Shown: positions 8,875 through 26,756, counted from the first letter of the stretch. The stretch is DNA of 64,000 nt from Phascolarctobacterium succinatutens CAG:287 (GCF_000434895.1 NZ_FR892810.1:1144-65143); one strand, 5' to 3'. Translations and numbers: made by a program. The notes: a model not told the origin generated them from the letters alone.

Positions 8875-10484
8875 ATTATATCTACCTTTTCTCCATTCAT
8901 ATAAACATATTCAAGCTTCATTCTTTTGGCAGAAAGCAAAGCGTCTGATTGACTTTCTACAATAGGTTCTCCTTTGCCATTAAAAGAAGTGTTAATCAAT
9001 ACTAATTCCCCATATTTTTTCTCAAGATAATCTAAAATTTTCCAAATCAGCTTTTTATTTTGATTCTCGTATATAACTTGAATTCTAACAGTATTATCTT
9101 TATGAACCAAAGCTGGCATATAATCTATCATTTCAGGTTTAATATTTATTGCCGATAGCATAAGCGGACTAGCTATTCTATCATCAGTAATCTTTTTCAG
9201 ATTACGCTCTAATATTACACCTCCAAAAGGTCTAAAGTTTTCCCGATGCTTTATCTGTAAATTGAGCCGATCCTTCATGTTCTTACTTTTTGCAGAAGCA
9301 ATAATGCTTCGATTGCAAAGAGCTCGCGGACCATATTCCGAGCCACCTTCAAATAGTCCTATAATCTTATCATCATGTATATCTTTTATTACCTGAAATA
9401 ATACAGATTCATCATAACATATTTCACCATAACTTTTTCCTAATGCATAGTCCCACTCAATTTTACTCTTATCTTTAAATATTTTTCTAATTGCCCAAAG
9501 TCCTGCTCCTATAGAAATTCCGTCATCTCCACTTGCTGGAAAAAGACCCAATGAATTAATCAATCCACTATTTATTAATTTTCCATTGTTAAGGCAATTT
9601 AATGCAACCCCACCAGAAAAACAAAAATCTAGGACATTATATTTTTCAGAAAAATATTTAATACGGGTTTGAATGTAGCTTTCTAATTCGAATTGAAGAG
9701 CACATGCAATATTTTTTGCTGTTTGCAACTCATATGATAGTGGATAATCTTGTGAATTTAAATAATCTAACCATTCTTTACGAACATGTAATTTTTTATC
9801 AAAATACAGACATTCTGGTACATCAGCATTCCCCACACCATATGCTGCCAATGCCATAACTTTGCCAGCTGCATTATAATCCTTAAAAATCAGTCGGCTA
9901 ACATCGGCATAGGCATATCCTATGGAGTCCATATGTGATCCCCATTTGTATTTATGCTTAGATGCACTTTCATGAACAGCATATTTCTTTTCAGCTTGTA
10001 ATTCAGTTATTTCGCCATTATCCAGTAGATATAGAGATTCTGCTTCAAATAAATCTTCTTCTGATAAGCTCGAACATCCATTATCAACTGGTCTGCACCC
10101 ACGCCCATCCATTATATAAATTAATGTCTTGTCAAATTTAGCTGCTAAAGATGCTGCATATGCATGAAATAAATGATGCTCATATCTCACAATTACTTTT
10201 GAAAACTTCTTATAATAATCATCATTAATTTCAGTTGAATCATACCAATTTACACGAACAACTAACGAAATTTGATTATACGTAATACCAGCAGCTTTAA
10301 GTAAATATTCTATGCATTCAATAGGTTCTCCAGAATCATGTTTTTTTCTAGTTAATCGCTCTCTGGCAATTGCATAGAGTAATTGATTATTTTTATATAA
10401 ACATGCTGAAGAATCATGTCCACTATGAACGCCAAGTATATAACGATCCACTTGATTCCCCCCTTTACAAACGTGCTTTTTCAA
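8871..10484 (-). CDS. carbamoyltransferase (NodU/CmcH/TobZ family)
   Basis: N-terminal ASKHA/Kae1-like block ILGVHSGHDSSACLYKNNQLLYAIARERLTRKKHD and C-terminal YrdC-like carbamoyltransferase region. About 537 aa, the typical length. Confidence 0.8.
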   Translation of the reverse strand: MKKHVCKGGNQVDRYILGVHSGHDSSACLYKNNQLLYAIARERLTRKKHDSGEPIECIEYLLKAAGITYNQISLVVRVNWYDSTEINDDYYKKFSKVIVRYEHHLFHAYAASLAAKFDKTLIYIMDGRGCRPVDNGCSSLSEEDLFEAESLYLLDNGEITELQAEKKYAVHESASKHKYKWGSHMDSIGYAYADVSRLIFKDYNAAGKVMALAAYGVGNADVPECLYFDKKLHVRKEWLDYLNSQDYPLSYELQTAKNIACALQFELESYIQTRIKYFSEKYNVLDFCFSGGVALNCLNNGKLINSGLINSLGLFPASGDDGISIGAGLWAIRKIFKDKSKIEWDYALGKSYGEICYDESVLFQVIKDIHDDKIIGLFEGGSEYGPRALCNRSIIASAKSKNMKDRLNLQIKHRENFRPFGGVILERNLKKITDDRIASPLMLSAINIKPEMIDYMPALVHKDNTVRIQVIYENQNKKLIWKILDYLEKKYGELVLINTSFNGKGEPIVESQSDALLSAKRMKLEYVYMNGEKVDII

Positions 10485-11127
10485 TTGCCATACTATGTCT
10501 ACGTTTTTCTATGCAATTCGGACAATGGAAAGAATGAATTATCCCATTATACCCACAGCCTTTTTCTTCGCTAAGATTTATTTCTTTAGTTTTTTCCGGA
10601 TGCTTATCTCTGTATCTATTTTTTATTTCAACACTACATTTTATACAAGGAACATCATTTTTTTCTTTTACATATACTGCAATTCCTGTTTTATCCCATA
10701 TATTGAGTTCATCACAAGTACTACAATACGCTAAAAACCAAGGAAATCCCCCATATAAATGTGATATTAATTTTTTTGAAAAAACATACTGAAATTCTTG
10801 TATTTCAAAATCACCTTTTTCTTGAAGAGCTTCATATACCTCATTATCAAATGATTCGCCTGGCCGAAATAAAAGATAGGTATCAGATTCATCGATGTTC
10901 AAATCGCAGCTTTTATATTCATTATACCCCAAAATATCATATACTAATGCCGGAACCCATGGATATAAAATATGAGTATTATCTCTATCAATTGCTTTTA
11001 GGTCCTCATAAGTTTTAATCTTTGAAGTACACTTAATCAATTCATCTTTATCAATTTCTATTCCCTGCATTTTCATAGCTAATTTAAATGATTTTATGCA
11101 AACACTATCCATCTCAAACCTCATCAT
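10465..11127 (-). CDS. hypothetical protein with C-terminal zinc-ribbon-like Cys pairs
   Basis: CxxC...CxxC...HCPNC arrangement in the last 70 residues. No recognisable catalytic motif. Translationally coupled to neighbours by overlaps. Confidence 0.5.
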   Translation of the reverse strand: MMRFEMDSVCIKSFKLAMKMQGIEIDKDELIKCTSKIKTYEDLKAIDRDNTHILYPWVPALVYDILGYNEYKSCDLNIDESDTYLLFRPGESFDNEVYEALQEKGDFEIQEFQYVFSKKLISHLYGGFPWFLAYCSTCDELNIWDKTGIAVYVKEKNDVPCIKCSVEIKNRYRDKHPEKTKEINLSEEKGCGYNGIIHSFHCPNCIEKRRHSMAIEKARL

Positions 11128-12283
11128 GCTTAATATATTGGCTACCGATTAGTAGTCTATCTTTTATTTTCTTATAATACGCTTCTGAGAAATTATCTCC
11201 TAAACATATAGCTAATCGATTATTGGCACTAGGATCTAATCTATCAATTCTATCTCCTAATTTTTTTAATTTTATAGCCTGTAAATCGTTAATAAGAAAA
11301 TTATCATTTATTAGCGTTCCCATAGTATTAGGGATAAAATTCAACTGAAAAACATTTTGGAAATTTCCTTTATTAGCTATGCATTTTTCTCCAAACAACA
11401 CTTCTAAGGAATCCCTATATAAATTACCACCATGGTATCTCAGTAATTCTGAAATTCCTCCACCCACTCGGCATGAGAAATCAATCGGAACTAGCACATT
11501 GCTGACACTAGTAGGTGAAATAAAATCGAATTGTCCGAATGAAATATTATCATAATCAAACAACGCATTGCACCATAATTCTAAATATCTTCTTATAAGC
11601 TCTGTTGGTTCTTCTAATACATATGCTAATACACACGGAGCATTATCAATAATTGTTCTGTATTTTTTGCATACCCTAACAACAGAAATTTTACCCTGAA
11701 AGAAAAAAACATCCGCACTATATTCTACGCCATCAATAAATTCAAAACATATTGATGGTGAAGCTGTAATATCTAATACTTTTTTTACCTTTTCGTCGAC
11801 AATAGACGCATCAATTAAATACTTATCTATATTGTGATAATTTAACGCAGAAATAATTTTGACGCCGTGTCCTGAATATTGATTATCTGGTTTTATAATA
11901 TATACTTTTTGTTTATCTGACACTATTTTTTTTACATTGCTCGTTATTTCATATCTATTCGATGGCAATCCGTGTTGCATCATGCAATCCGCTAAATATT
12001 TTTTAGACCGACTAGCCTTAAATGCTTTAGTAGAAATTCTACACCTTTTTACATTCTTTTTACACCATGTTACCCAATATTCATTTAATGGCACTACTAT
12101 TGAATCTTCATCTTTAATATCATTTTTAACACTTACTTCTTTCAAATCATCTGAACTAATATATTTTGCCATTTCAGGTGTTTCAACAAATTGCAATGCG
12201 AAATCCGAATTTTTAGAAGCAGCTTTTATATCTGCCAATCCATATATGCTTGCAGCACCTGCAAATATTATTATTGTTTTCAT
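11114..12283 (-). CDS. ATP-grasp domain protein (putative ligase)
   Basis: Central block KQKVYIIKPDNQYSGHGVKII typical of the ATP-grasp fold (D-Ala-D-Ala ligase/RimK/graspetide-ligase families), about 390 aa. First gene after a 540-bp gap containing a terminator. Confidence 0.55.
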   Translation of the reverse strand: MKTIIIFAGAASIYGLADIKAASKNSDFALQFVETPEMAKYISSDDLKEVSVKNDIKDEDSIVVPLNEYWVTWCKKNVKRCRISTKAFKASRSKKYLADCMMQHGLPSNRYEITSNVKKIVSDKQKVYIIKPDNQYSGHGVKIISALNYHNIDKYLIDASIVDEKVKKVLDITASPSICFEFIDGVEYSADVFFFQGKISVVRVCKKYRTIIDNAPCVLAYVLEEPTELIRRYLELWCNALFDYDNISFGQFDFISPTSVSNVLVPIDFSCRVGGGISELLRYHGGNLYRDSLEVLFGEKCIANKGNFQNVFQLNFIPNTMGTLINDNFLINDLQAIKLKKLGDRIDRLDPSANNRLAICLGDNFSEAYYKKIKDRLLIGSQYIKHDEV

Positions 12284-12611
12284 CTCAATTTCTCCTAGAT
12301 TAACTCTAAACCCAATTATATGAAAGCTTGTGCCGTTAACAAAAAGAATATCAATAGTGATTTTTGCGTCAAACCTATTGTTCCGAAAAGTAGCGGGTAC
12401 TACATATCAATCTTATTTTAGCGCAATCGAAGCTATTAGTAAATCCTGCTACAAATTTTTTAAAGACATGATATACTTCGCGCATTCTTAAAGTTCTTAC
12501 GAATAAATATAATAAAAACGAGAAATGCCACAAAAATTACATAAGCGTCTAATAAAGTCTCCACTTACAAAGCATACAAATTAATATTACATATCTAAGC
12601 AAAAAACAAAA

Positions 12612-12662
12612 CCTCCTATTCCAGAATGTTAATATACCGAAATATACATTCTAAAAAGGAGG
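12612..12662 (-). terminator. Rho-independent terminator/attenuator downstream of small peptide gene 1
   Basis: Inverted repeat cctcctattccagaatgt...acattctaaaaaggagg, which on the minus strand is followed by a T-run (ttttgtttttt). Lies between the peptide gene and the ATP-grasp gene. Confidence 0.45.
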
Positions 12663-12821
12663 CTGAGACAGTATATCTTCCGAAAATTATATCACTAAAT
12701 TACTCAACATTAAACCATCTGAGGTGTTATCTTTAACTGGAAGCTCAAAAAAAGGTACTATTATTCTTAAGATTCACCTGAAAGTTAACGATTAGATCCA
12801 CTCAATTCCAATAACAATAAA

Positions 12822-13019
12822 TTATTGATTGAATCTTATTGAATTATTGTTTACAGACAGTAAAGCTTTACTGTGAATATCTCTAAGCATTAAACCAGAA
12901 GCAGTGCCCACAGAAAATGCTGATGCTGCACTAAGTCCGGCAACAGCGCCTACGACAGCGGGAATAGCACCCTCACTAGGATATAAATTATTAATTAATG
13001 GTTTACTATATTTTTTCAT
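12822..13019 (-). CDS. small Gly/Ala-rich peptide (candidate RiPP/bacteriocin precursor 1)
   Basis: 65 aa: MKKYSKPLINNLYPSEGAIPAVVGAVAGLSAASAFSVGTASGLMLRDIHSKALLSVNNNSIRFNQ. Its ATG overlaps the PqqD-like stop (ATGA). Paralogous to the peptide at 13310..13474, with a shared MKK[YS][SY]xKP N-terminus and an A[IF]P..VGAxxAG core. Confidence 0.5.
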   Translation of the reverse strand: MKKYSKPLINNLYPSEGAIPAVVGAVAGLSAASAFSVGTASGLMLRDIHSKALLSVNNNSIRFNQ

Positions 13020-13306
13020 TTTTTATCCTCCAATCTGATAATATTTTTCCATTGTAAATCCCTAATCAGATTTACTATGTCTTGTTCTAAACTATTTTCG
13101 TCAATTACGTAATCCTTAAGAAACATTTCTTTTATTTCTTCGATTTTTCTTTTTCCATCGCATAATTCCAGAAAATTTTTAGCCGTTTCATTTAAATAAA
13201 AAATATCTAAACCGTCTGATTCTGCTATTAAAAAATCTTCATTTTCCCTAGTCTTTAAGGCTATAACTCTAGGAATCTTATCTTTAAAAAAATCGTACAC
13301 CACCAC
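13016..13306 (-). CDS. PqqD-family protein (RiPP recognition element, peptide chaperone)
   Basis: LNETAKNFLELCDGKRKIEEIKEMFLKDY matches the PqqD/RRE signature (LNxTaxxIWeLcDGkrTveEI). About 95 aa. Probable GTG start, 3 nt after the peptide-2 stop. Confidence 0.7.
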   Translation of the reverse strand: MVVYDFFKDKIPRVIALKTRENEDFLIAESDGLDIFYLNETAKNFLELCDGKRKIEEIKEMFLKDYVIDENSLEQDIVNLIRDLQWKNIIRLEDKK

Positions 13307-13309
13307 AAT

Positions 13310-13474
13310 TCACCTACCTAAATTTTTCAGTTTTATTACAGGGCTCGCTTTCATAGCATGAGCTACTGCTCTTCCAATTACGTAACCACCAGCTAAAGCT
13401 GCACCTACCATCGGAAACGCACTTTTCCCCATATCAAAGCACATAGCCACTGGTTTTATATAACTTTTCTTCAT
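13310..13474 (-). CDS. small Gly/Ala-rich peptide (candidate precursor 2), absent from the ORF track
   Basis: Manual translation from the ATG at 13474 (RBS TAAGGAG 6 nt upstream) gives 54 aa: MKKSYIKPVAMCFDMGKSAFPMVGAALAGGYVIGRAVAHAMKASPVIKLKNLGR, stop at 13310-13312. Paralogous to peptide 1. Confidence 0.5.
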   Translation of the reverse strand: MKKSYIKPVAMCFDMGKSAFPMVGAALAGGYVIGRAVAHAMKASPVIKLKNLGR

Positions 13475-13560
13475 AGCAAACAACTCCTTATAATATCTTT
13501 TATTTTTACCGATTTTCTCGGTCTTTTGTAGTTTTTTATATTTTAAGTCAGCTTTTTGTT

Positions 13561-14601
13561 TTAGACTAAAATATCTTTATCAACATGATTTTGAATATTG
13601 CCCTTTTGAGTCTCCTCGTTTATTGAGGCAATAAATTTTTGAACTCTTTCACTCTTCCATGCATTAATTCCGTGCTTCATCCATAACTCTTTTAGTGAAG
13701 TATTTAACACATTGCCAATAATGAACGGAGCCATGCAATCTAATCGGAATTCCCCATTAGGTCTAATGATACCGCCAGCATTATTCTCTAAGCTATACCT
13801 TTTCATTTGATGCCCCAAATCAGCACTTCTTCTAATTTCTATTTTCTCGTTATACTTATTTTGAAGCTTACTAATAACTTCATACAAGCAATTTTTTTGT
13901 TCTTTCGTTAAAATAATATCTTCATTAGTAATAGCTCTTCCACTAGGCAAAACCTCACCTAAAATAATTCTGCTTGCCCCCATGCTATAAGCTAAATCTA
14001 CCATATCCTCAACTTTTCCTAGATTTTTAGGAGTTACCGTATGAGCAATTACAAGAGGTATACCAGCTTGAGAAATTTCCAAAGCACCATTTACCGCTCG
14101 TTCAAAGCTGCCTCTCACCCCCCTGAACTCGTCATGAATTTCTGCTGTTGAACCGTCAATAGATACTTGAAACCAATAATATCTATACTTACTAAAGCGT
14201 TTTACTTTTTCTTTAGTCAGCAGGTAACCGTTTGTAATAACTACAAAAGAAGTCCCATCATCATGCAAAATATCCATTATGTCAAATAGGCGATCACCTA
14301 ATAATAATGGCTCTCCGCCAGAAAGAATACATTGAAAAATACCGCCATCTTTAACTATCTCTTTAGCCAAACTGCACCATTTATCTGGTGTCATTAACGT
14401 CTCCCTATCAGCATCACCAGATCTATTATAACAATGCTTGCACGCAAGATTGCATCGTCCTGTTAATTCAAATTGTAACGTAATCGGATATGTAAATTTT
14501 TCAGGATATAAGCCTTGTTTTCTTAAATTAGTAATATTTTCTTCAATAGCCTTTAGATATTGATTATCTAACGCTCTGTTTATTTTTATATAATCTTTCA
14601 T
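13561..14601 (-). CDS. radical SAM enzyme (peptide-maturase-like, PqqE/anSME-type N-terminal domain; incomplete SPASM cysteine set)
   Basis: Canonical CNLACKHCY (CX3CX2C) at residues about 50-58, SAM-binding ILSGGEPLL, and the glycine-rich barrel motifs. The C-terminal region has only two Cys (RLDCMAPF), so no full SPASM. Start overlaps the upstream gene (ATGA). Confidence 0.85.
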   Translation of the reverse strand: MKDYIKINRALDNQYLKAIEENITNLRKQGLYPEKFTYPITLQFELTGRCNLACKHCYNRSGDADRETLMTPDKWCSLAKEIVKDGGIFQCILSGGEPLLLGDRLFDIMDILHDDGTSFVVITNGYLLTKEKVKRFSKYRYYWFQVSIDGSTAEIHDEFRGVRGSFERAVNGALEISQAGIPLVIAHTVTPKNLGKVEDMVDLAYSMGASRIILGEVLPSGRAITNEDIILTKEQKNCLYEVISKLQNKYNEKIEIRRSADLGHQMKRYSLENNAGGIIRPNGEFRLDCMAPFIIGNVLNTSLKELWMKHGINAWKSERVQKFIASINEETQKGNIQNHVDKDILV

Positions 14602-14870
14602 TCTTTTTCTCCTTTTATTATTTTACAAAAAAAGTAAATAATACGATGAAATTCACGAACACTCATATACGGAAAATACTTTTCGTAAACATACTTACCA
14701 TTGCAAGCATTCGGCCGGATAGAATAAATTGAACATCTGTTATCCACATTCAAGAATTTGCAAATACCATCGCCTCTATCAAATCCTAATAATTGCAGTA
14801 TTCTATTCACATGTTTACAACATTCCCCACAGCAATCGCATGGAAACGGATAATACTTTTGCACAATCAT
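14598..14870 (-). CDS. YkgJ-family cysteine-cluster protein (putative Zn/Fe-chelating domain, PF03692-like)
   Basis: FPCDCCGECC = CxCCxxCC motif, plus further Cys (C..C, CNGK), characteristic of the YkgJ / flagellin N-methylase-like cysteine cluster. 90 aa. Confidence 0.55.
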   Translation of the reverse strand: MIVQKYYPFPCDCCGECCKHVNRILQLLGFDRGDGICKFLNVDNRCSIYSIRPNACNGKYVYEKYFPYMSVREFHRIIYFFCKIIKGEKE

Positions 14871-14954
14871 TTCCCCTTAATAACATTGACATAAATTTGA
14901 CCTTTTTGTTTTAAGAACGTTTTATATTTAGTTTATTAATGAGAGTTTTTGATT

Positions 14955-15185
14955 TTATCCATTCTCCACCCCATCCATCAGCTCGCTCATCGTAATACCT
15001 AGTTTCTCGGCAATCTTCATTAAGGTTGAAAGTGATACGCTTTTTGTATAACCGCCATTTTCAATACGCGATAAATATTGCGGCGTAATGCCAACTTCTT
15101 CTGCAAGCTTCTCTTGTGTCATGCTCTTCAATTTTCTATAAAAAACTATCTTGGCACCTATTTTCTTATATCGCGACGCAAACAT
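14955..15185 (-). CDS. XRE-family helix-turn-helix transcriptional regulator (type a)
   Basis: LKSMTQEKLAEEVGITPQYLSRIENGGYTKSVSLSTLMKIAEKLGITMSEL is a classic Cro/C1-type HTH. Sits immediately upstream of, and co-directional with, the YkgJ/rSAM/peptide operon. Confidence 0.8.
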   Translation of the reverse strand: MFASRYKKIGAKIVFYRKLKSMTQEKLAEEVGITPQYLSRIENGGYTKSVSLSTLMKIAEKLGITMSELMDGVENG

Positions 15186-15342
15186 TTAGCTCTCACTCCT
15201 CTTACCACTATATTATCGCACATTCTCAATTTCTTATCTTTGCACAATTGTTTCATAACTTTACATATAGTTTAATTTTTTTTGCGCCTTGCTTTTTGGA
15301 GCTCGCCAATGTACTTACATCATTATTTATTTCTGCTGCTTC

Positions 15343-15585
15343 TTACTTTCTCTCCTGCATAAGCCGCACCGGGTCAACCCCCAAAGCCTGCGCCAGCAAA
15401 AATATAGACTCCATATTAAAGGGTCCCTTGCCGCATTCGATGTCTGAAACGCGCGCTCTTGACATTTTGGCCTTCTCCGCCAGCTCGCTCTGCGTCAGGC
15501 TCAATGCCCTACGATAATACATTATATTCAAGCCAATAGTTTTATATTTTTCTTCAAACAAAAAGTACCACTCCTTATCTCTCAC
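15343..15585 (-). CDS. XRE-family helix-turn-helix transcriptional regulator (type b, copy 1)
   Basis: LSLTQSELAEKAKMSRARVSDIECGKGPFNMESIFLLAQALGVDP. About 96% identical to the protein at 21719..21937. Confidence 0.8.
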   Translation of the reverse strand: MRDKEWYFLFEEKYKTIGLNIMYYRRALSLTQSELAEKAKMSRARVSDIECGKGPFNMESIFLLAQALGVDPVRLMQERK

Positions 15586-15758
15586 CTTATATTATGCACT
15601 AAAAAGGTAGCTCGTGCGGTGCTTTAAATTTTATATATGTGGAATATATTTGACATGAATGCTGTAAACTTCCTTACTTACCGCCTGCTTTTAGTATAAA
15701 TTGAAATGAGAAACAATAATACCACTATAAAATTTCTTCTTTGTGATATTTGAATAAG

Positions 15759-15811
15759 AAAAAAGCTCCCGGATTTCTCCGAGAGCCGATTGCCATAGTT
15801 GGCGGAGTGGG
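15759..15811. repeat. direct repeat: copy of the tRNA-Ser(GCU) 3' end plus terminator hairpin (att-like, distal copy)
   Basis: aaaaaagctcccggatttctccgagagccgattgccatagttggcggagtggg matches 26704..26756 at 49 of 53 positions. All four mismatches fall in the hairpin arms as two compensatory pairs, preserving the stem. Confidence 0.7.
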
Positions 15812-15864
15812 TTAAGGTCTTCTAACCCAACAACAAAGTAATGCTTACTTAATCCTATCAATTT

Positions 15865-16926
15865 TTATTTCAGCAGTGCTACTTTGGAATCTCCAACGCC
15901 GCTATTCAGCTGTGCTGTTTTTGAATTTGCAACGGCCTTACTCAGCAGGGCAACCTTTTTATCTATTTCCTTTTGGACACGCTCTTTGTAATCCTTTAAG
16001 GCCGCATCAATGGTATCGATAACCTGGGAATCGTAATCCACATAATTAATGGCGTCCTTCAAATCTCCTATATATTCTTCGCAAGCCTTATTTACATCTT
16101 TATAGCAATATTTCTCTTCATATTTATCATTACCGAAGAAGCTAGTGCCTGCATATACTTCTGTATCATCTGTATCCATATAATCCCTATAATCACTACG
16201 GGAAGTATAATTGCAGCCATTAAACTCTCTCATTACATCACTGCAGCCGCGCTCTTCAAACTCTTTAAGCCTTACATTGAGCATATACACAAGCACAGAA
16301 TCCTTCTCATTAGCACTGCCGCCCGGGAAAACCGCAAATTCTTTAAAGTCTGCCGGCAGCTTAATTCCGCCTGCAGCTGCCGCTCCGGCAAATTCCTGCA
16401 GCACATCTGCATACTGCTTGTTAATCTGCCCCCAGAAGCCGCTTTCATCAAAAGTATAAAATCTTCTCAGCTTGTCTTCCTTATATTGCACAAAAACCTC
16501 AAGAATGAATTTCTTATACTGCGAATAGCAGATACGATCAAATTCACTTTCCGCAGCACTCATAGCTCTGCTTTCGCTGGAATAATCATAACGATATTCT
16601 CCCTGCGGATAGGAGCAGGTCATACGGTAATCCTGTGCGTGCATCTCAACATCTTTTCGGGTAACATTCGGAACGGTAATCTTTGCTAAAGCGTTTTGCA
16701 GTTTTTCCGGCAGCTTGCTTAAGTCTGCGCCTTCGCCTTCCGCTATGCTTAAAGCTTGTACAGGGCAACCGGCAACAATTTCTTCAGCCTTGGCTAAAAA
16801 ATCATCACTAAAATAGCCACCATTTACAGGAACAGCCTTGCCTTCAGCATCTTCCTGCAAAAGTTTTGTTTCTAATAAGCAGTTGCCACAAGCAATGCAT
16901 TTTTCACTAACTACAAATTTTTTCAT
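15865..16926 (-). CDS. hypothetical protein with N-terminal single-cluster 4Fe-4S ferredoxin-like domain
   Basis: N-terminus CIACGNCLLET...AGCPVQAL resembles single [4Fe-4S] ferredoxin domains. The remaining roughly 290 aa have no recognisable motif. First gene downstream in a three-gene operon. Confidence 0.5.
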   Translation of the reverse strand: MKKFVVSEKCIACGNCLLETKLLQEDAEGKAVPVNGGYFSDDFLAKAEEIVAGCPVQALSIAEGEGADLSKLPEKLQNALAKITVPNVTRKDVEMHAQDYRMTCSYPQGEYRYDYSSESRAMSAAESEFDRICYSQYKKFILEVFVQYKEDKLRRFYTFDESGFWGQINKQYADVLQEFAGAAAAGGIKLPADFKEFAVFPGGSANEKDSVLVYMLNVRLKEFEERGCSDVMREFNGCNYTSRSDYRDYMDTDDTEVYAGTSFFGNDKYEEKYCYKDVNKACEEYIGDLKDAINYVDYDSQVIDTIDAALKDYKERVQKEIDKKVALLSKAVANSKTAQLNSGVGDSKVALLK

Positions 16927-16942
16927 CTTGATTCCTCCAAAT

Positions 16943-17770
16943 CTACAAATTTTTTATATCCTGCATACACTGACTGCCAATTGCCAACGCTTCCGTTGTT
17001 TCTTGCGTAACCTTTCCTTCGTCCGTAAGTACAGGAGCATCAATTATTTTTTTCAGTGTAACCGCCAGATTTATGCAGCTGCAAAAGGCCTTGCGATCGT
17101 TTTCTGTATAAGCAGCTTTGTCCCTGCCCTTAGCAGCAATCAGTTCATCTGAATAGCTGATAGCTTGCATAAACAGCCTGTTTAACCTTGGCAGTAAATC
17201 AGACACCTTATTGCAGGAAGCTATCACGCCGTCTAAAACAGCAGCTAAATTTTCAGCCTGGCTGTAGACAACACGTGAACTGCGCAGCTGCGCGCCAGCC
17301 ATTTGCAGTTCCCTTTCAGAATCATTGATAAACGCATTGCCTAAGCCAAATACGCCGAAGCCCTTTAAGATGCTGACAGCAATTTCTTTATCAGTCATTG
17401 GTCTTACAGCTGTCTGTGCCACTGCATTGATAATCTGTATCTCTTTAGGGCTAAAGCTTTGCTGGTTTAAAACTGCCAGCATCTTGTCATCACGAAAGTC
17501 AATTTTCATGAGCTTGCCATACACAGTAACAAAATTCTGCATTGAAGTAATCAATATCGAACGCTTACGGTTGGAAAGCTTCTTCATAGCATTATCTGCT
17601 GCCTGCTTCTTTACTTCCACCAGCCTGTGAGCTTCTTGCTCCATCGCAAAAGCTTTAGCATAACGCTTTCTCGTCCTGCTATCTATCTGCATTGATTTTT
17701 CTGCGCCATAAAGGCCGCTGCCCAAAACTGCCCCAAGTACCAGTCCGATCATATCATCTGCCCCCTTCAT
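16943..17770 (-). CDS. hypothetical protein (N-terminal glycine-zipper hydrophobic segment)
   Basis: MIGLVLGAVLGSGLYGAE hydrophobic GxxxG segment followed by a predicted helical region. Start overlaps the upstream gene's stop (17767/17770). Confidence 0.5.
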   Translation of the reverse strand: MKGADDMIGLVLGAVLGSGLYGAEKSMQIDSRTRKRYAKAFAMEQEAHRLVEVKKQAADNAMKKLSNRKRSILITSMQNFVTVYGKLMKIDFRDDKMLAVLNQQSFSPKEIQIINAVAQTAVRPMTDKEIAVSILKGFGVFGLGNAFINDSERELQMAGAQLRSSRVVYSQAENLAAVLDGVIASCNKVSDLLPRLNRLFMQAISYSDELIAAKGRDKAAYTENDRKAFCSCINLAVTLKKIIDAPVLTDEGKVTQETTEALAIGSQCMQDIKNL

Positions 17771-19122
17771 AATGTCAGCACCGCATCTTTATCGTCAAAA
17801 AAACTGTTAAACTCCTCCAGTGACTGAAAAGCACATTTTTGGTTAAACACCGCCAAAATATCATTCAGGCCCTGGGTGATTGCTTTATCATCTACTGCGT
17901 AAACTCCCTGCATAACAAGCTCAAAGCCACCTTCAAAGGCCGCTGTCATATATGCATCTTTTGCTTTATTGTATTCATCAATCCGCTGCTTTTGCTGCGC
18001 CAGACTTTGCAGTGCAGTATTAATAATATGCTTAAATTCCGCCTGACGTTTTTTATCCAGCCTGCGTTCCATCTGATATTTAGTGACCGCCCTGGTTATT
18101 TCCCCCACAACCAGGGAAGTAACCACTGCCGCCACCGGTCCGCCCAAGGCAAACGCCATGTTTGCTGCCAATACACCGGCAGTGCCGCAAACAATTTGCG
18201 CAGAGCATTCTTCGCCGCTGATATTGCCATCTAAATAGTTCGCCACAATGCCACCTATTTCTACAGCCATCGTCAGCTGCATAATCGGCAAATTTTTTCC
18301 TGCTAGCTTGGCGAAATCCTTCGCCCCAGCCTTTTTCGCTACTGCGACAACACCATCCTGTACTACCGAAATACCGGCAGCACTGCCAAAGCTCCTTACA
18401 GTATCCTTGCCGACATTTTTTACAGCCTGCTTAATGTCCTGTTCACCTTTCACCAAGCCCACAAGATTGGTCAAGCCGGAAACAGTTGCAGTTACAAAGG
18501 CTGCTTCCCTGCCGGCAGCAGTTGCCTTCTTGACCGATGGCGCAACTGCACCCAGCTTAGAACTGATAACTTTGCTGTTTTTTATTTCATTAACCGTATT
18601 TTCTATTTTATACTTAGTCGCCTGTGTCCGTATATGAGCCTCTGCCTTCACTTCTTCTTTCAGCATATTAACGCTCGTCACAGCATCCGGGCAGTCAACA
18701 GCTTTTTTATTTGTCTTGAAGATTTTCTTGCCAAATAAAGTCTCTGATACATCATTAATCTGCGCAGCGCCTGCTTCAGTATATTTTTTTGCTATATACT
18801 CGTGGTTATTCAGCGCACCCTTGGACTTGTTCAGCGAGGCATTGGTATTAGCAAGGTTTGCATCAGCATTAGCCATTGTTCTTATCTGCTCCGGCGTCAA
18901 ATCAGAACCATAACGCCTGATTTGCTCATCTAACGGAACAATGTGGTCAACGTTTGATTGCTTTTCATTAATATGCTTATTAGCATTATAAAAAATTCTC
19001 TTACCCGTATATTCGTCAGTTATACTTTTTTTATTGCCAAAGGATCTGTTTTTATAGCTGTCAGCCGCATTATTGCGTCTGTTAATATCATCTACCTGAC
19101 TACGCTTTATCTTATCACTCAT
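17767..19122 (-). CDS. HNH (beta-beta-alpha-Me) nuclease-motif protein with Gly/Ala-rich hydrophobic central region
   Basis: N-terminal SNVDHIVPLDEQIRRYGSDL...NASLNKSKGALNNHEY resembles the Cys-free HNH motif (compare Cas9 HNH DVDHIVPQS...DNKVLTRSDKNRGKSD). Central region GIVANYLDG...GTAGVLAANMAFALGGPVAAVVTSLVVG is glycine-zipper-like. Confidence 0.5.
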   Translation of the reverse strand: MSDKIKRSQVDDINRRNNAADSYKNRSFGNKKSITDEYTGKRIFYNANKHINEKQSNVDHIVPLDEQIRRYGSDLTPEQIRTMANADANLANTNASLNKSKGALNNHEYIAKKYTEAGAAQINDVSETLFGKKIFKTNKKAVDCPDAVTSVNMLKEEVKAEAHIRTQATKYKIENTVNEIKNSKVISSKLGAVAPSVKKATAAGREAAFVTATVSGLTNLVGLVKGEQDIKQAVKNVGKDTVRSFGSAAGISVVQDGVVAVAKKAGAKDFAKLAGKNLPIMQLTMAVEIGGIVANYLDGNISGEECSAQIVCGTAGVLAANMAFALGGPVAAVVTSLVVGEITRAVTKYQMERRLDKKRQAEFKHIINTALQSLAQQKQRIDEYNKAKDAYMTAAFEGGFELVMQGVYAVDDKAITQGLNDILAVFNQKCAFQSLEEFNSFFDDKDAVLTL

Positions 19123-19159
19123 ACGCCGCCTCCAAAATTTATTGAGAAGTATCTTCTAC

Positions 19160-19390
19160 TCCTTCCATTAGCTCACTCATCGTAATCCCTAGCTTCCTGG
19201 CAACCTATTCCTGTATCAAACTCTTCAATTGCCTGCAAGTAAGGCATCTTAGTGCCTATTTTCTTATATCTCTGTGCAAATAATTAGCATTAGCTCCCTT
19301 TCCCACTATATTATCGCACATTATCAATTTCATATCTTTGCACAATTTTTCACAATTTTACATATAGTTTAATTTCTTGCGCTTTACCTA
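19160..19390 (-). pseudogene. remnant of type-a XRE regulator gene plus its conserved downstream noncoding segment
   Basis: 19160-19270 aligns to the 5' and 3' parts of the 14955..15185 gene with about 80 nt missing internally. 19290-19390 (ctatattatcgcacattatcaatttcatatctttgcacaatttttcacaattttacatatagtttaattt) matches 15205-15290. Confidence 0.5.
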
Positions 19391-19573
19391 TTAAGCTTTG
19401 CAAGGTGCTTACGTAATTTATATTTCCGCCATGATTTTGATAATAAGTTATGGTGCATTTTTTTCAAACTCACGTCAAATCACCCATTTGCCATATGAGC
19501 ATGAATATATTTAAAGTTCAACATATTAAATAAATTTTTAGCAGGACTGCAAAACGCAGCCCTGCCTGTTACC

Positions 19574-20992
19574 TTATAGCTGTAAATAATCAATCAATAC
19601 CAAACCGGCGTTATACCCGGCCAGCGAAGCAGTTGTCCTATCCATAGGATGCCACGAACCATCATCAGCCTGATATTGAACAAGATATCCTTTACCAGTA
19701 AGCAGACCTACAATACATTGCTGTCGACTTTGCTGCCCAGTGCTACCTATTACAATCATGTCATATTGCACAATTGTTTGACCATTATTGCGCGACAAAA
19801 TTTTTGCACTGCGACAATCAACATAACGATGTGCTCCTTGTCGTTGGAATACTTCCGGTATATATTTATCGCCATTCAAAAACGCTTGCGGATGAAATAA
19901 ATTATACTTCGGTCCACTGCTATTCACATTACTATTCACATTGCTATTTGCATTGCTATTGCTGTATGTAGTTGCTTTACTATTGTTCTCTTCCTGCTGC
20001 ATGTTTAAAATGCCTTCCACATTATATTTATAGGCACCTGTATTGATGAGCAGCTTGCCTTTACCATTATCTAATTCCAACTGAGTCCAGTGTAAATTAA
20101 AGTCCTTGTATTTACTTTCTAAGAAATATTGGCACTCTACTGTCAAAACTTGCTTAGAATTCAATTTGAAGCCTTTTAAATCATTACGATCGCCAAAAGT
20201 AATAACATTAAATTTTTTAGGCGTTAGCAAGTCATTGCCAATTCTCAGGTTAACAGAAAGCTTATCAAGGTCTATTGTTTCATTTTTGCTCATATTAGTA
20301 AAAGCTATCGTTACACTATAAACCCAATCATCAATCTTGCGTCGTTCAAGCACGGCAAAGCCTAGCTTGGTATCGCCAATTTCTTGAACTCGATACGAAG
20401 CGCCACTGCAATCTAAATAAGCGGCTCCCTTATGAAATTCGCCATCATTAGCCATGCCATACCAGTTTAAATCGTGCTGCAAAACAGCATTTTGGAATTC
20501 TACCTTTTCAAAGGCTTCCATTTCCATTGGTCCATTATTGCCAGAATATTGTTCCATATTAGAGCAGACTCTTTTAAGATAAACATTATAAGCCTGCAGA
20601 TAATCCTTCACGCTTTTAGCGTAATTAGCTATTTGGTAGCGTTTGATGGCTTTCTCCCCATCCTTTTTAGAAGGACCATTATCCTTGCTGTCCATCATTT
20701 TCTTGCTGAAATCCATAAAGCTCTCATTGGCCTTCGCTTCATCATATTTTTCATCACTCAGCTTGGCGATATTCTTGTCATTTTCTTCAATTAAATTCTT
20801 AATCTGCTTGAGCATTTTCTGCTTATCAATATTGCGATTTTCCAGCATGGCCTGAGCCTGCTCTGTTTCCATCTCAGCAACCTTCGTACTGTTGTTAAGA
20901 TACATGGAATGTATTTTTTGCTCTTCTGACTTACCACAACCGGTAAGCACCACTGTTAAGATAAGCATTGCATAAAAAAACAGCTTTTTCAC
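19574..20992 (-). CDS. hypothetical lipoprotein with N-terminal coiled-coil region and N/S-rich repeat
   Basis: Signal peptide with lipobox (VLTGCGK). KATTYSNSNANSNVNSNVNSSGPKY is encoded by a 12-nt tandem repeat at about 19916-19965. Confidence 0.6.
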   Translation of the reverse strand: MKKLFFYAMLILTVVLTGCGKSEEQKIHSMYLNNSTKVAEMETEQAQAMLENRNIDKQKMLKQIKNLIEENDKNIAKLSDEKYDEAKANESFMDFSKKMMDSKDNGPSKKDGEKAIKRYQIANYAKSVKDYLQAYNVYLKRVCSNMEQYSGNNGPMEMEAFEKVEFQNAVLQHDLNWYGMANDGEFHKGAAYLDCSGASYRVQEIGDTKLGFAVLERRKIDDWVYSVTIAFTNMSKNETIDLDKLSVNLRIGNDLLTPKKFNVITFGDRNDLKGFKLNSKQVLTVECQYFLESKYKDFNLHWTQLELDNGKGKLLINTGAYKYNVEGILNMQQEENNSKATTYSNSNANSNVNSNVNSSGPKYNLFHPQAFLNGDKYIPEVFQRQGAHRYVDCRSAKILSRNNGQTIVQYDMIVIGSTGQQSRQQCIVGLLTGKGYLVQYQADDGSWHPMDRTTASLAGYNAGLVLIDYLQL

Positions 20993-21044
20993 ACTATGAC
21001 CTCCCTATATAACTTTTCCAGTTAAATGTTTTATAAAAAAAGTA

Positions 21045-21677
21045 CTATTGCAAAGGATCTGCTCCGTAGCGATTATCACCTACCGTACCAGGCGCAAACA
21101 GTAAATACAACTCAAAAAAGCCATTGAGAAGTGGCACAAAGGTTAATAATACTAATAAGCCATCTTTATCCAAATCGTGCAAGCGACGAACCGATATAGC
21201 ACTATTTATCCAAACCAATAGAGTAAAAGCTATTAAGCCAATGAAGCAAGCCAGATAATCAATTGCTTCCATATAGTAATCATCTACAAACTCGTCGATG
21301 ATGCAGGCGATAATAAAAAACACCAAACAACTACTCATGCTCTTGAGGAAATAATCCAATCTATTGATGCGTCCCTCAAAGCTCAAAAACTGCTCTTTAA
21401 AAATCTCTTTATTCAAAGCAGGTTTACGTTCGGGATTATTGCCAAAAAGTCTGCTAAAGATTTCTTTAAAATCCTTGGGATTATCATTGCTATGAGCTTT
21501 TCCCAACTGAAAACCACATTTTGTGCAAAATTTGACACCAATAGGATAAGTTGTACCGCACTTAGGGCAAATTACATTTGTCGGCTCAATCTTTGGTAAC
21601 TGATCTGTCCCGCATACCGGACAAAACCTTCCCTGGTCGTCAATTTCGGCTCCACACTTAATACAATACTTTGACAT
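21045..21677 (-). CDS. DUF805-family inner-membrane protein with N-terminal zinc-ribbon repeats
   Basis: Three CxxC...CxxC zinc-ribbon units (CIKCGAE..CPVCG; CPKCGT..CTKCG) followed by the DUF805 signature (GRINRLDYF ... RRLHDLDKDG ... GDNRYGADP). Confidence 0.7.
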   Translation of the reverse strand: MSKYCIKCGAEIDDQGRFCPVCGTDQLPKIEPTNVICPKCGTTYPIGVKFCTKCGFQLGKAHSNDNPKDFKEIFSRLFGNNPERKPALNKEIFKEQFLSFEGRINRLDYFLKSMSSCLVFFIIACIIDEFVDDYYMEAIDYLACFIGLIAFTLLVWINSAISVRRLHDLDKDGLLVLLTFVPLLNGFFELYLLFAPGTVGDNRYGADPLQ

Positions 21678-21718
21678 AATATCTGCCTCCCTCTAATATT
21701 TTTTATTGCCGCTGCTTC

Positions 21719-21937
21719 TTACTTTCTCTCCTGCAGAAGCCGCACCGGGTCAACCCCCAGGGCCTGCGCCAGCAAAAATATAGACTCCATATTAAACGGT
21801 CCCTTACCGCATTCTATATCCGAGACGCGCGCCCTTGACATTTGGGCTTTCTCCGCCAGCTCGCTCTGCGTCAGACTCAATGACCTGCGATAATACATAA
21901 TATTTAAGCCAATAGTTTTATATTTTTCTTCAAACAA
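21719..21937 (-). CDS. XRE-family helix-turn-helix transcriptional regulator (type b, copy 2)
   Basis: 72 aa, about 96% identical to 15343..15585. The roughly 190 bp on its high-coordinate side are also conserved with 15586-15758. Confidence 0.8.
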   Translation of the reverse strand: MFEEKYKTIGLNIMYYRRSLSLTQSELAEKAQMSRARVSDIECGKGPFNMESIFLLAQALGVDPVRLLQERK

Positions 21938-22208
21938 AAAGCATCACTTCTTATCTCTTCCCTTCTATTATGCACTAAAAAGATGGCTCTTGCGGTGCTT
22001 TAGATTTTATATATATGGAATATATTTGACATAAAATCCGCAAGCTTACTTGACCACCGCCTGCTTTTAGTATAAGATGAAGTCAGAAACAATAACACCA
22101 TGATAAAATTTCTTTTTTGTGATATTATAATGACGAAAAAGCAGATGCCGACAAAACATCAGCATCTGCTAGCAACATAAGATTTTAGATTTTTGCGAGG
22201 TTATACCT

Positions 22209-23375
22209 ATGACGACAATGCAACGCGCCTTTCCGGCGCCAGTGATTCCCAAATTCTTCACCAATAATATCTGCGGCAATTATCAAATTCGCCGCTTTTT
22301 TAACGGTCAGGACGACTTTATCTGCGCCCAAGGCCCCTTTCATACGCAAACTATCGCTTCACAAAGTGAGGAAGGTGCGGCAGCTTCTTCCCTGGCTATA
22401 GCCTTCGCCAATATTGACGAAAACGATAAAAAGCAGGTGCTTGCCTTCTGCAATGCCTACGGCCTGCCCTATTCTTCGCAGCGCTGCCTTGAGAAACGTG
22501 CACATCTTGATGACGAAAATCATTCTGTAATCATCAACGATTTCAGTTTTATCGACACTACCCTTTTTATGGGAGATATCCTTGCAGAAAAAGACTATGC
22601 TGCCAATGATGCCGAGGTTACCTTGAATTACACCCTGTTCGAAGTAGACGAAATGGACATTATGAGCCTGCGCCTTTTTGCCCGCTGCGTCAAAATCGTC
22701 CGCAGCCTGCTTATTGTCCAAAGCTATCTCTTCCGACACGAAGGGACACAGGCAGGCGTTATCTATGCACTTGCCTACCTGCTGCATTACAGCGCACGTT
22801 GCATTCACTACCTGCTGCCGCACATCAAAACACCTACGCTCAAGGCAGCAGAATACTTTGCTACGCACAAGCGTATTTCGCACACGCAGCTGCTCAAAAA
22901 TATCCGCAAAACAGATGCAGACTACGCCTGCCAGCTGCAAGACTTTCTCGCAGTCGTAGACAAGCATATGCTGCACACACTTGCTGATTATGACAAGGAC
23001 CTGCTGACGAAGAAACAGCTTACTGCCATGATTCTCGCTGAAGATATTCCAAGCATAAGCCTTGACAACGCTTTTGCCAGACGCATCCTGCTCGATATCA
23101 TCAACGATAATATCTATACCGCCAGACCGCAAATGGACCTGGCGCAAGAAAAATTTACCAGCCTTTGGCAATGCAGTTATCTTATGCAGGCAGTTTATCT
23201 TGATTTGTATCAGCTGCTGCTCAATCCGGGCGAATACCACCGCTGCGCCAATCCTGAATGCAGCAATTATTTTCTCATCAGCGGACGCCGTGCAGACAAA
23301 CGCTACTGCTGCAATCGCTGTGCTTCCAAAATGGGTAAGCAAGGCAAAACATATAGACCGCATAAGGAAAAATGA
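22209..23375 (+). CDS. CGNR zinc-finger domain protein
   Basis: C-terminal CANPECSNYFLISGRRADKRYCCNRCASKM matches the zf-CGNR motif. Higher GC than the surrounding genes. A palindrome and T-run terminator follow at 23457-23505. Confidence 0.65.
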   Translation: MTTMQRAFPAPVIPKFFTNNICGNYQIRRFFNGQDDFICAQGPFHTQTIASQSEEGAAASSLAIAFANIDENDKKQVLAFCNAYGLPYSSQRCLEKRAHLDDENHSVIINDFSFIDTTLFMGDILAEKDYAANDAEVTLNYTLFEVDEMDIMSLRLFARCVKIVRSLLIVQSYLFRHEGTQAGVIYALAYLLHYSARCIHYLLPHIKTPTLKAAEYFATHKRISHTQLLKNIRKTDADYACQLQDFLAVVDKHMLHTLADYDKDLLTKKQLTAMILAEDIPSISLDNAFARRILLDIINDNIYTARPQMDLAQEKFTSLWQCSYLMQAVYLDLYQLLLNPGEYHRCANPECSNYFLISGRRADKRYCCNRCASKMGKQGKTYRPHKEK

Positions 23376-23620: not shown

Positions 23621-25117
23621 TTACTTCTTTTGTTCTGTAAACTTATACTTGCCTTTACCTTGCCCGATGACCGCTTCAATCACTCCTGCTTCTTTTAGTT
23701 TATTTATGAGATTACCGGCAGCAGTAATAGAGATGTTTACAATGCCTATTATATCATTACGTCCAAATACACCATCGAAGCTCATGTAGGCAAACAGTTT
23801 TTTTGCGTTTTCCTTAGTATTCTTGTTTGCGTTCAAACTGTCAATCGCAGCTTCAATTAAAAGGTTTTCAGAAGCAATTAACACCTTTTCTCCGTCAACT
23901 GCAACTTTTTTCGGGTCAATTAACACCTTTTCAATTGGAACTTTGTAATTCAGATTGTAGAGCGTAGCAAAAAATGATTTGGGTGTCGATCTGAAAATTG
24001 GCTCGACTTCGGGACGATAATTAACCGCATGACGATAATCTGCCTTGATCTTCTTGAAACCGCTGCCACGACGATCCATAAAGTGCATACGGCTGAAAAT
24101 ATCAGCAATCACTGGATTACGGCGTTTGGATGCTACATTGTCCATATCAAGCTCTTGTACGATAGAGCCATCAAACATACCGCCTGGGGAATATACTTCC
24201 ATGCGGTTATCGAAAATATCAATGTGTACCTCGCTGCCGATCTCCATATAGTCACGATGAATCAGCGCATTGACAATTACCTCATGTACTGCCTGTTCGG
24301 GGTATTCGGGCATCTCCACTCGTCCATTGCCAACCTTTTTCCACCTTTTCTTGGTATTGTTCTTAACGAACTCGGTGCCGTTCTGCAACAAAGATACCAA
24401 TGAACCGCTGTATTCCTTATCGTCAAGTGCTTCAATAATACCTGAGGCTTTGTTCAAGCCATACCAACGGGTACAGAACAGGCGAGAGTGCCGCATCGGA
24501 GATTCATCCGCCAACAACATGCCTGCGTTGGTTAGCATATTGTTTTCGTCAACAAGCTCAAAGGAAATAAAATCGGAATCCGTTAACTCTGTACCTGTTC
24601 TCATACGATAAACAGAGCGCAGCTTTGTAAAGGCAAGCGATTCAAATGAATAACGCGTAGAAAGACTGTCAAAAGACGTATTGCTTCCACGCAAAACAAG
24701 CCGCTTCAAATCTACAGCACTTGCAGGGACACTCTCATTGCCGATGCGAACATAAGCTATCCTGTTACCATCGCCTGTATAGTAATAAGGAGTTTCCTGC
24801 CCTGACGGAACTCGCAATAAAACGAACTCTTTGCCGTCCTCTGCGTGGATGTTCAAAATCACTTGTGGGGCAGGATCCATTTTAGTTTTGATAGCTTCGC
24901 TAATCTTTTCAGATACGCCCTTTGCATCATCTAACCCGACAAGAACTTCATCGTTGGACACACCGAAAAACAATGCTCCACCAATCCCATTGGCAAATGC
25001 GCTTACGCTTTTTAACCAACTTTTAGGCTTGCGTTCTTCAAGCATTTCTTTCTTATCATATTCCGTAGCTTCACCTATGAAATCAGATAATTTCATATTG
25101 TTAATACCTCGTTTCAT
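23621..25117 (-). CDS. Schlafen/AlbA_2-domain plus HATPase-like plus HTH putative transcriptional regulator (so-called RecG-like DNA-binding protein)
   Basis: N-terminal AlbA_2-like region (ESWLKSVSAFANGIGGALFFGV) and a central ATPase-like region (VHEVIVNALIHRDY, an HATPase_c_4-like Bergerat motif) with C-terminal HTH. This architecture is often annotated as an ATP-dependent DNA helicase RecG-related regulator on mobile elements. Confidence 0.65.
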   Translation of the reverse strand: MKRGINNMKLSDFIGEATEYDKKEMLEERKPKSWLKSVSAFANGIGGALFFGVSNDEVLVGLDDAKGVSEKISEAIKTKMDPAPQVILNIHAEDGKEFVLLRVPSGQETPYYYTGDGNRIAYVRIGNESVPASAVDLKRLVLRGSNTSFDSLSTRYSFESLAFTKLRSVYRMRTGTELTDSDFISFELVDENNMLTNAGMLLADESPMRHSRLFCTRWYGLNKASGIIEALDDKEYSGSLVSLLQNGTEFVKNNTKKRWKKVGNGRVEMPEYPEQAVHEVIVNALIHRDYMEIGSEVHIDIFDNRMEVYSPGGMFDGSIVQELDMDNVASKRRNPVIADIFSRMHFMDRRGSGFKKIKADYRHAVNYRPEVEPIFRSTPKSFFATLYNLNYKVPIEKVLIDPKKVAVDGEKVLIASENLLIEAAIDSLNANKNTKENAKKLFAYMSFDGVFGRNDIIGIVNISITAAGNLINKLKEAGVIEAVIGQGKGKYKFTEQKK

Positions 25118-26703: not shown

Positions 26704-26756
26704 AAAAAAGCTCTCAGATTTCTCTGAGAGCCGATTGCCATAGTTGGCGGAGTGGG
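26704..26756. repeat. direct repeat (proximal copy): terminator hairpin plus last 12 nt of tRNA-Ser(GCU)
   Basis: aaaaaagctctcagatttctctgagagccgattgccatagttggcggagtggg. The hairpin gctctcaga/tctgagagc plus A-run forms a terminator for the minus-strand tRNA. Pairs with 15759..15811. Confidence 0.7.

Follow-up and report, generated by a model that had tools for sequence, protein, structure and literature searches.

We describe here a three-gene cassette, A-B-C, carried by a 64,000-nt stretch of Phascolarctobacterium succinatutens CAG:287 (NZ_FR892810.1:1144-65143; hereafter the window, within which all positions are counted). Gene A is predicted to encode a nuclease head followed by a helical, partly hydrophobic module, gene B a helical protein whose N-terminus is hydrophobic, and gene C a protein with a ferredoxin domain. 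The predicted nuclease head is exchanged between relatives while the module, B and C stay constant. On balance, we favour the view that A-B-C is a conflict or defence cassette working roughly as proposed in the Discussion, most likely in anti-phage defence or abortive infection. The system appears to be undescribed and abundant in gut anaerobes.

Results

A conserved three-gene operon

The scan for open reading frames (ORFs) detected three co-directional ORFs, all on the minus strand, at 15865-16926, 16943-17770 and 17767-19122. Gene A (19122..17767, minus strand, 451 aa) is the first of the operon, gene B (17770..16943, minus strand, 275 aa) the second and gene C (16926..15865, minus strand, 353 aa) the third. 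An earlier reading of the window made from the sequence alone (the sequence-only reading) had used the plus-strand order and let the operon end in the HNH gene; since all three ORFs are on the minus strand, the HNH gene opens the operon and the ferredoxin gene comes last. The same reading called the genes overlapping and co-directional: the common direction holds for all three and the overlap for A and B (4 nt, ATGA), but B and C are separated by a gap of 16 nt. A ribosome-binding site, GGAGG, lies 7 nt 5′ of A, and a hairpin resembling an intrinsic terminator (15787..15764, minus strand; 10-bp stem with 6 GC pairs, and a T-run) begins 78 nt past the stop codon of C, where it is predicted to mark the end of the operon. 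With these two signals at its ends the operon is self-contained and, from the promoter-like leader described below, the 4-nt overlap, the 16-nt gap and the terminator-like hairpin, A, B and C are predicted to be one transcription unit.

We found 32 close clusters of A. A full-database profile search with the A module alone retrieved 1,157 cluster representatives (clusters at 50% identity) at E≤1e-3, of which 718 reached E≤1e-10, most of these proteins being 420–520 aa long with the module in C-terminal position. The hosts are Phascolarctobacterium, Veillonella and metagenome-assembled genomes of Clostridia/Bacillota; in two of the loci, L007 and L008, the A protein is about 98% identical to that of the window. 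The order A-B-C was observed in all 12 informative genome loci. A census with hidden Markov models covered 100 loci, grouped into 26 B lineages at 80% identity, and its counts refer to informative lineages. The A module is directly upstream of B in 25/25 lineages and C is directly downstream of B in 18/21, the lineages without C being L026 and extra A+B pairs in L018 and L019. Within the window lineage (53 loci), A was present in 47/47 and C in 42/44 informative loci. The conserved gene triad that the sequence-only reading proposed to seek by co-occurrence analysis therefore exists, recurring in order across 26 divergent lineages. Some genomes harbour two copies of the system (L018, 6643-8541; L019, 6502-8313; L088, 5511-9685 and 13758-16638). 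In Veillonella, an additional A+B pair without C is located directly upstream of a set composed of a WYL regulator gene (see below) and A-B-C, and one metagenome contig carries two WYL-headed systems 4 kb apart.

Protein A starts with a predicted His-Me finger nuclease

Residues 1-125 of A (18748..19122, minus strand) form a head of the GmrSD_C/DUF1524 type. The Pfam family PF07510 (GmrSD_C/DUF1524) matches 19 of 20 A homologues, with a best E of 9.5e-8, whereas the window protein itself scores just under the Pfam cutoff (E=0.002). The motif of the head is N-terminal, free of cysteines and of the form DH...N...N. Among 102 family representatives sharing less than 50% pairwise identity, D59, H60, N98 and K101 are invariant (102/102), and N85 and N89 nearly so; the codons of the catalytic D59-H60 pair are at 18943-18948 on the minus strand. 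The head fits the His-Me finger/HNH superfamily, whose members have a beta-beta-alpha-metal fold, a catalytic histidine with an aspartate before it and, further downstream, asparagines or histidines as metal and structural residues. Its AlphaFold model is confident (predicted local distance difference test, pLDDT, about 84), and the Foldseek matches include the C-terminal domain of SspE. Together, these observations suggest that the head is an active nuclease.

The Cys-free HNH motif noticed by the sequence-only reading at the start of a 451-aa protein is thus real and belongs to a GmrSD_C/DUF1524-type head, and an HNH fold with a conserved catalytic motif is indeed predicted. The qualification "Cas9-like" is correct for the fold, at the level of the superfamily, and does not extend further, the domain matching GmrSD_C/DUF1524. 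We rejected a Cas9 or CRISPR-associated identity, for which one would expect an HNH domain inserted in a RuvC nuclease, a protein of about 1,000 aa or more, and cas genes with a CRISPR array nearby: A has only 451 aa and no Pfam match to a RuvC, REC or PI domain, the HNH fold being all that the two have in common. No repeat array was found in 14800-22300, and no recognisable cas gene among the scanned flanking ORFs or in the ORF list for 13000-22000. A type IV restriction enzyme of the GmrSD type was likewise set aside, given that DUF262 is found neither in A nor in any of the 20 homologues and that the DUF1524-like domain is N-terminal.

The predicted nuclease head is exchanged on a constant scaffold

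Head classes were assigned to the 132 longer proteins among the 150 best matches of the A module. DUF1524-like heads are the most frequent (104/132), followed by colicin-DNase/WHH heads (12/132, with Pfam E down to 2e-15) and by a third class (12/132) that has an E...D...(Q/E)xK pattern and no database match; 4/132 heads fall outside these three classes. An identification of the class-3 head as a PD-(D/E)xK nuclease was considered and not retained, the pattern being suggestive but without Pfam or PDB support. In loci with WHH heads (L022 and L028) or a class-3 head (L023), B was still recognisable at E of about 1e-66 to 1e-72 and C at about 1e-54 to 1e-78. Across the family, the predicted nuclease head is exchanged while the module, B and C remain constant. 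B and C thus track the constant module and not the nuclease, which speaks against a role as head-specific immunity proteins. This arrangement fits the scaffold-plus-warhead design typical of conflict systems.

At locus L022, a stand-alone WHH nuclease gene and a SUKH/SMI1 immunity gene (2435-3513) are located directly upstream of the A gene with a WHH/colicin-DNase head. This pair is a possible source of the swapped head, or of cross-immunity.

The helical module of A and proteins B and C

The conserved module of A covers residues 140-451 (17767..18705, minus strand); it is helical and has no Pfam family. Its strongest hydrophobic element is a Gly/Ala-rich helix-GGP-helix hairpin at residues 306-348 (18079..18207, minus strand), where the Kyte-Doolittle hydropathy reaches its maximum for A, 1.91 over 43 aa. 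This putative membrane-inserting element corresponds to the strongest of the Gly/Ala-rich segments that the sequence-only reading had noticed after the HNH motif. Its glycine zipper is kept family-wide, with the consensus G-x8-G-xxx-G-xxxx-P-xxxx-G-xxx-GS.

Further towards the C-terminus, residues ~350-430 (17830-18075) contain the most conserved C-terminal motif of the family, GF..i......n....I..GLn.IL..F, which aligns to residues 127-198 of alpha-latrocrustotoxin. Residues 121-198 of the latter (7ptx_A) were the top PDB match of two A profiles, in the same register and with marginal E values (7.9e-4 and 0.033). The match disappeared with a 133-sequence full-length A profile, and no further latrotoxin chain occurred in any of the three PDB match lists for A profiles. 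Residues 116-352 of alpha-latrocrustotoxin form a six-helix pore-forming bundle (PMC8630228). The C-terminal helices of A may be homologous to the latrotoxin helical bundle, a marginal similarity that we keep as a lead only.

Protein B begins with a GxxxGxxxG hydrophobic stretch (residues 7-23), in agreement with the GxxxG hydrophobic helix described by the sequence-only reading at the start of this 275-aa protein, and has a Gly-rich hydrophobic patch in its centre (residues 129-150). B had no match in Pfam, NCBIfam, PDB or PHROGs, and no relatives were detectable outside the A-B-C system. The idea that B is a paralogue of the A module was abandoned, with an hhalign probability of 0.2–4.7%. 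Membrane association of A and B is suggested by their hydrophobic segments. In L026, which has the A+B variant without C, the B homologue (1940-2974, 344 aa) has a central Gly-rich patch grown to about 90 residues of glycine-zipper sequence.

Protein C carries a ferredoxin domain at residues 1-65 (16732-16926, minus strand). Fer4_15 is matched above the Pfam cutoff (26.2 bits versus 22.4; E=1.3e-5) and also in 12/12 C homologues, and the C profile matches PDB ferredoxins with an E of 2e-7. The ligand pattern, CxxCxxC...CP, is of the single-cluster type, and the four cysteines (C10, C13, C16 and C54) are present in 64/64 distinct homologues; we therefore predict that C, with its [4Fe-4S]-type cysteine set, binds a cluster. 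C is larger than a stand-alone ferredoxin carrier (about 55–80 aa), its 353 aa including a conserved extra domain of about 280 aa (residues 66-340) that is helical with a beta-hairpin and is modelled with a pLDDT of about 80. Searches with this domain gave generic helical bundles only, with no family or specific fold match. The composition given by the sequence-only reading, an N-terminal single-cluster ferredoxin domain and about 290 aa of unrecognised sequence, is thereby upheld. A weak PADLOC match suggesting a LeoBC relative was too non-specific and was not used. An unusual C homologue of 812 aa was found in L027 (3252-5690), with two tandem ferredoxin domains and an N-terminal region in which a repeat of about 110 aa occurs three times.

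Comparison with known systems

The sequence-only reading did not recognise the domain combination of A-B-C, which is indeed absent from Pfam, NCBIfam, PADLOC and PHROGs; we also found no description of the gene set in the literature. The head of A belongs to the same nuclease family as those of GmrSD, BrxU and SspE, enzymes of type IV restriction and Ssp defence (Cys-free His-Me finger, DH...N...N; PF07510). However, in these soluble proteins DUF1524 is combined with a DUF262/ParB-like NTPase or sensor domain at the N-terminus, whereas the nuclease of A is itself N-terminal, fused to a hydrophobic helical module and accompanied by two dedicated partner proteins.

Among PADLOC profiles, PDC-M40B matches residues 14-130 of A (E=5.9e-8), that is the head only, over 133 of its 547 positions (88-220). 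The window proteins B and C had no PADLOC match at E≤1. An identity with PDC-M40 was rejected, since the A head alone aligns and B and C are unmatched. PDC-M09A, whose 282 positions make it about the size of B, gave weak matches to two B homologues, in their C-terminal half (2e-4 and 8.5e-3), and to one A homologue, in its C-terminal part. Judging from these alignments, PDC-M40 and PDC-M09 would be at most distant relatives or domain-sharing systems. No published description of PDC-M40 or PDC-M09 was found.

Polymorphic toxins and colicins likewise carry interchangeable nuclease heads on a constant scaffold, and some heads of the A family are of the colicin-DNase/WHH type. A differs from them in its reversed domain order, in lacking a trafficking domain and in having partner genes that do not co-vary with the head. 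The hydrophobic helical hairpin of A recalls pore-forming colicin domains. In membrane-associated defence systems such as Zorya, Kiwa and 2TM/SLATT effectors, a membrane component is coupled to an effector that degrades nucleic acids or disrupts membranes, a logic resembling that proposed for A-B-C; to our knowledge, none of them has an Fe-S ferredoxin subunit or an A module. No sequence relationship of A-B-C to these effectors was detected with PADLOC.

Regulatory genes and the leader of the operon

In 10 of 21 informative lineages of the census, a gene for a winged helix-turn-helix (HTH)-WYL regulator ends at the start of A, the upstream genes of the different lineages being orthologues of one another. 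Repressors of this WYL type sense single-stranded DNA and de-repress defence operons (PMC11662680), and WYL repressors co-localise with many defence systems (PMC9122601). The position of WYL upstream of A, taken with this literature, supports damage- or infection-linked expression in the WYL-bearing relatives. It is the same position as in the WYL-controlled operons of the BrxR/CapW type, which include BREX, CBASS and others (PMC9122601, PMC11662680). Nevertheless, the A, B and C genes are not among the systems listed for these regulators, and the window lineage, in which the WYL gene was lost or was never present, has XRE genes and a putatively captured XRE promoter instead. In one lineage (L005/L006), genes for TelA (toxic anion resistance) and XpaC-like/TM2 membrane-stress proteins are located directly upstream of the system (5728-7844) and adjoin a 75-aa remnant of the HTH of a WYL regulator.

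Two XRE-family HTH genes lie downstream of the operon in the window (14955-15185 and 15343-15585, minus strand; HTH_3 at 1.6e-17 and 5.6e-12), and these genes (14955-15585) are candidate regulators in the WYL-less window lineage. In L017 and L030, this XRE pair is directly upstream of A. The leader of A (about 270 nt 5′ of A; 19155..19400, minus strand) duplicates the promoter/operator and the 5′ portion of the XRE gene at 14955-15185, as seen from direct repeats D2, D4, D6 and D7. In the alignment, its promoter stretch is near-identical to that of the XRE gene. The promoter/operator has been kept, the start codon lost and about 90 nt deleted internally, with the coding part deleted or decayed; a leftover short ORF of this XRE remnant (MSELMEGVEDTSQ*) stops about 30 nt short of A. 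The promoter scan placed a promoter-like site at 19333..19305 (minus strand). Since the leader copies the XRE promoter/operator, the operon seems to be driven by a captured XRE promoter, and its expression in the window is probably under the control of the neighbouring XRE repressors. Nothing credible as a regulatory RNA was found in the leader with Rfam.

A strain-variable island next to tRNA-Ser genes

The cassette is located 7.6 kb from two tRNA-Ser genes (26745-26992, minus strand) at the edge of a low-GC, strain-variable island. Strain comparison indicated gain and loss of cassettes in the interval from the tRNA genes to position 13560, which bears out the tRNA-linked island of the sequence-only reading. 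In L007, 26700-23400 is missing and C is followed by 5.6 kb of additional sequence; L017 and L030 lack 21697-19203. Other loci show damage to the system itself. In L008 (11610 onward), B is cut off after residue ~86, and next come three paralogous genes whose products have P-loop GTPase-like motifs (read by eye) and Gly-rich C-termini. In L021 (10001-11186), A has several frameshifts and lies beside intact B and C; L061 (5661-7249) has a 1.6-kb insertion between A and B, and in L019 B is split by a frameshift. Such decay of A or B in single loci is as expected of a costly accessory system.

Two direct repeats with XRE HTH gene copies (15322-15763 and 21698-22126; about 440 bp, 86–90% identical by blastn, 300 nt in the gapless repeat finder) bracket A-B-C together with a DUF805 gene and a lipoprotein gene. 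The strain breakpoints are at these repeats, which therefore probably mediate cassette shuffling. The two accompanying genes, between A and the upstream XRE gene, encode a predicted lipoprotein of 472 aa with an Asn/Ser-rich repeat (NSNANSNVNSNVNS; 19574-20992, minus strand) and a double-zinc-ribbon (DZR) plus DUF805 membrane protein (21045-21677, minus strand). Both are missing from L017 and L030, and a similar DZR-DUF805 gene is found near the system in L004.

The gene adjoining the tRNA-Ser genes (25204-26361, minus strand) encodes an AbiLi-type AAA ATPase (PADLOC 5.6e-89; Pfam AAA_21). As only 86 nt separate it from the next gene, there is no room for an AbiLii gene after it. That next gene (23621-25117, minus strand) encodes a Schlafen AlbA_2 + HATPase_c_4 protein, and the 3.3-kb AbiLi/Schlafen block is missing in L007. 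On the other side of the cassette, a block of about 31% GC (5741-14870, minus strand) contains genes for a radical-SAM enzyme (13561-14601), an ATP-grasp-like protein (11114-12283) and a carbamoyltransferase (8871-10484), along with small ORFs (12822-13306 and 14598-14870) that could be precursor or chaperone peptides. This block looks like a biosynthesis cluster for a ribosomally synthesised and post-translationally modified peptide (RiPP) or another modified peptide.

In other loci, the system is found near type I restriction-modification (R-M), AbiEi/Eii, PDC-S26, PDC-S32, HipA and serine recombinase genes, and in L004 near integrase, ERF and RtcB genes. Routine housekeeping neighbours, which the sequence-only reading had set against a defence role, were not observed: the WYL regulator is the commonest neighbour, and AbiL, AbiE, type I R-M and recombinases recur. 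Some flanks are housekeeping genes, as expected for an inserted cassette. No PHROG match was found for the system. Two IMG/VR matches correspond to the host flank adjoining tRNA-Ser and not to phage carriage.

Discussion

On balance, the evidence points to a defence module, as the sequence-only reading had supposed: the triad is conserved and has defence genes among its neighbours. The polymorphic-toxin half of that proposal fits poorly. We propose that A and B would come together at the cytoplasmic side of the membrane, held there by their hydrophobic hairpins; this placement at the inner membrane face is drawn from the lack of a detectable signal peptide in A, B and C and from the hairpin keeping both ends of the protein on the same side. 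B and C would bind the constant module and not the head, as structural or sensor partners, and C would dock on A/B, either to sense redox state or cluster integrity or to act as a regulator. The trigger could be infection, DNA damage or a membrane/redox disturbance, upon which the nuclease would be released to cut DNA, or the hairpins would permeabilise the membrane, or both. Phage replication would thereby be stopped or the infected cell killed.

Several observations weigh against this interpretation, in which we infer both the function and the mechanism of the cassette. Neither the window nor any informative locus of its lineage has the WYL regulator (0/42). The neighbourhood evidence is anecdotal, without background correction, and several flanks consist of housekeeping genes. 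C was not found by tblastn in plasmid or phage collections, and its absence from L026 and from the extra A+B pairs of L018 and L019 means that it is not essential to the core. Membrane association is deduced from hydropathy alone, and the model of the A module is of low confidence (AlphaFold pLDDT below 50 at residues 176-382). For neither B nor the helical domain of C is there an informative homologue or a fold match, so that the roles given to them are guesses. A bolder version of the proposal strikes us as rather doubtful, if still worth stating: an unrecognised class of immune system, widespread in anaerobic Firmicutes, in which a membrane-docked A module and B would carry an interchangeable nuclease, C would be a [4Fe-4S] infection sensor responding to redox state or to the integrity of its cluster, triggering would consist of nuclease release, of a hairpin pore or of both, and the C-terminus of the module could be an ancient bacterial relative of the pore-forming bundle of spider latrotoxins.

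We regard it as unlikely that A-B-C is a toxin-antitoxin (addiction) module stabilising the island or a mobile element, with A as the toxin, B and/or C as restraining partners and no dedicated anti-phage role. The tight coupling and conserved order of the genes, the mosaic islands resembling mobile elements with integrases or recombinases, the decay of A alone beside intact B and C in L021 and the existence of A+B pairs without C would all suit such a module. However, three large proteins (451, 275 and 353 aa) including an Fe-S subunit are atypical for toxin-antitoxin pairs, and the WYL regulator, present in half of the lineages, suggests that expression is induced by damage or infection. The two explanations are not cleanly separable, toxin-antitoxin and abortive-infection functions being overlapping. 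It is more improbable still that the genes form an accessory physiological module, either a membrane-bound nuclease complex for DNA uptake or degradation, or a redox/membrane-stress response of strict anaerobes with C as electron-transfer partner. The canonical ferredoxin domain of C is compatible with this function, as are the identified hosts, which are all anaerobic Firmicutes (Phascolarctobacterium, Veillonella, Clostridia), the TelA and XpaC-like stress genes upstream in L005/L006 and some of the housekeeping flanks. The patchy, strain-variable distribution, with truncations and insertions within a single species, argues in the other direction, as does the neighbourhood of WYL regulators and of Abi or R-M genes; the exchange of heads from unrelated nuclease families is a mark of conflict systems and not of housekeeping enzymes.

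The least probable of these explanations, in our judgement, is an interbacterial polymorphic toxin or bacteriocin, in which A would be exported or released, its hydrophobic helical module would act in translocation or pore formation as in colicins, competitors would be killed by the nuclease and self-immunity would come from B or C. Colicin-DNase/WHH heads are typical of such toxins, the classical WHH toxin and SUKH immunity pair of L022 adjoins an A gene with a WHH head, and both the hydrophobic hairpin and the marginal profile match to the pore-forming bundle of alpha-latrocrustotoxin could be read in the same sense. Yet the nuclease of A is N-terminal and not C-terminal, and B and C do not change with the class of the head, as immunity proteins would be expected to. 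Moreover, Pfam detected neither a signal peptide nor a trafficking domain (LXG, RHS, PT-TG or other), no secretion-system genes were seen in the flanks, and C needs cytoplasmic Fe-S assembly.

If A-B-C is a true defence system, it would represent an abundant family specific to gut anaerobes, in which the A module alone accounts for about 1,157 clusters (50% identity). Of the four parts from which it is built, the module of A, protein B and C's helical domain are undescribed protein families. It would also place a rare ferredoxin-type Fe-S protein inside an immune system, raising the question of whether redox state or cluster integrity may act as an infection signal. Swappable heads on a constant, putatively membrane-associated scaffold offer a natural experiment in effector exchange between conflict systems. 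In Phascolarctobacterium, a genus that is common in the human gut and for which few genetic tools exist, the analysis points to a tRNA-Ser island that varies between strains and bears AbiL-like and other conflict genes.

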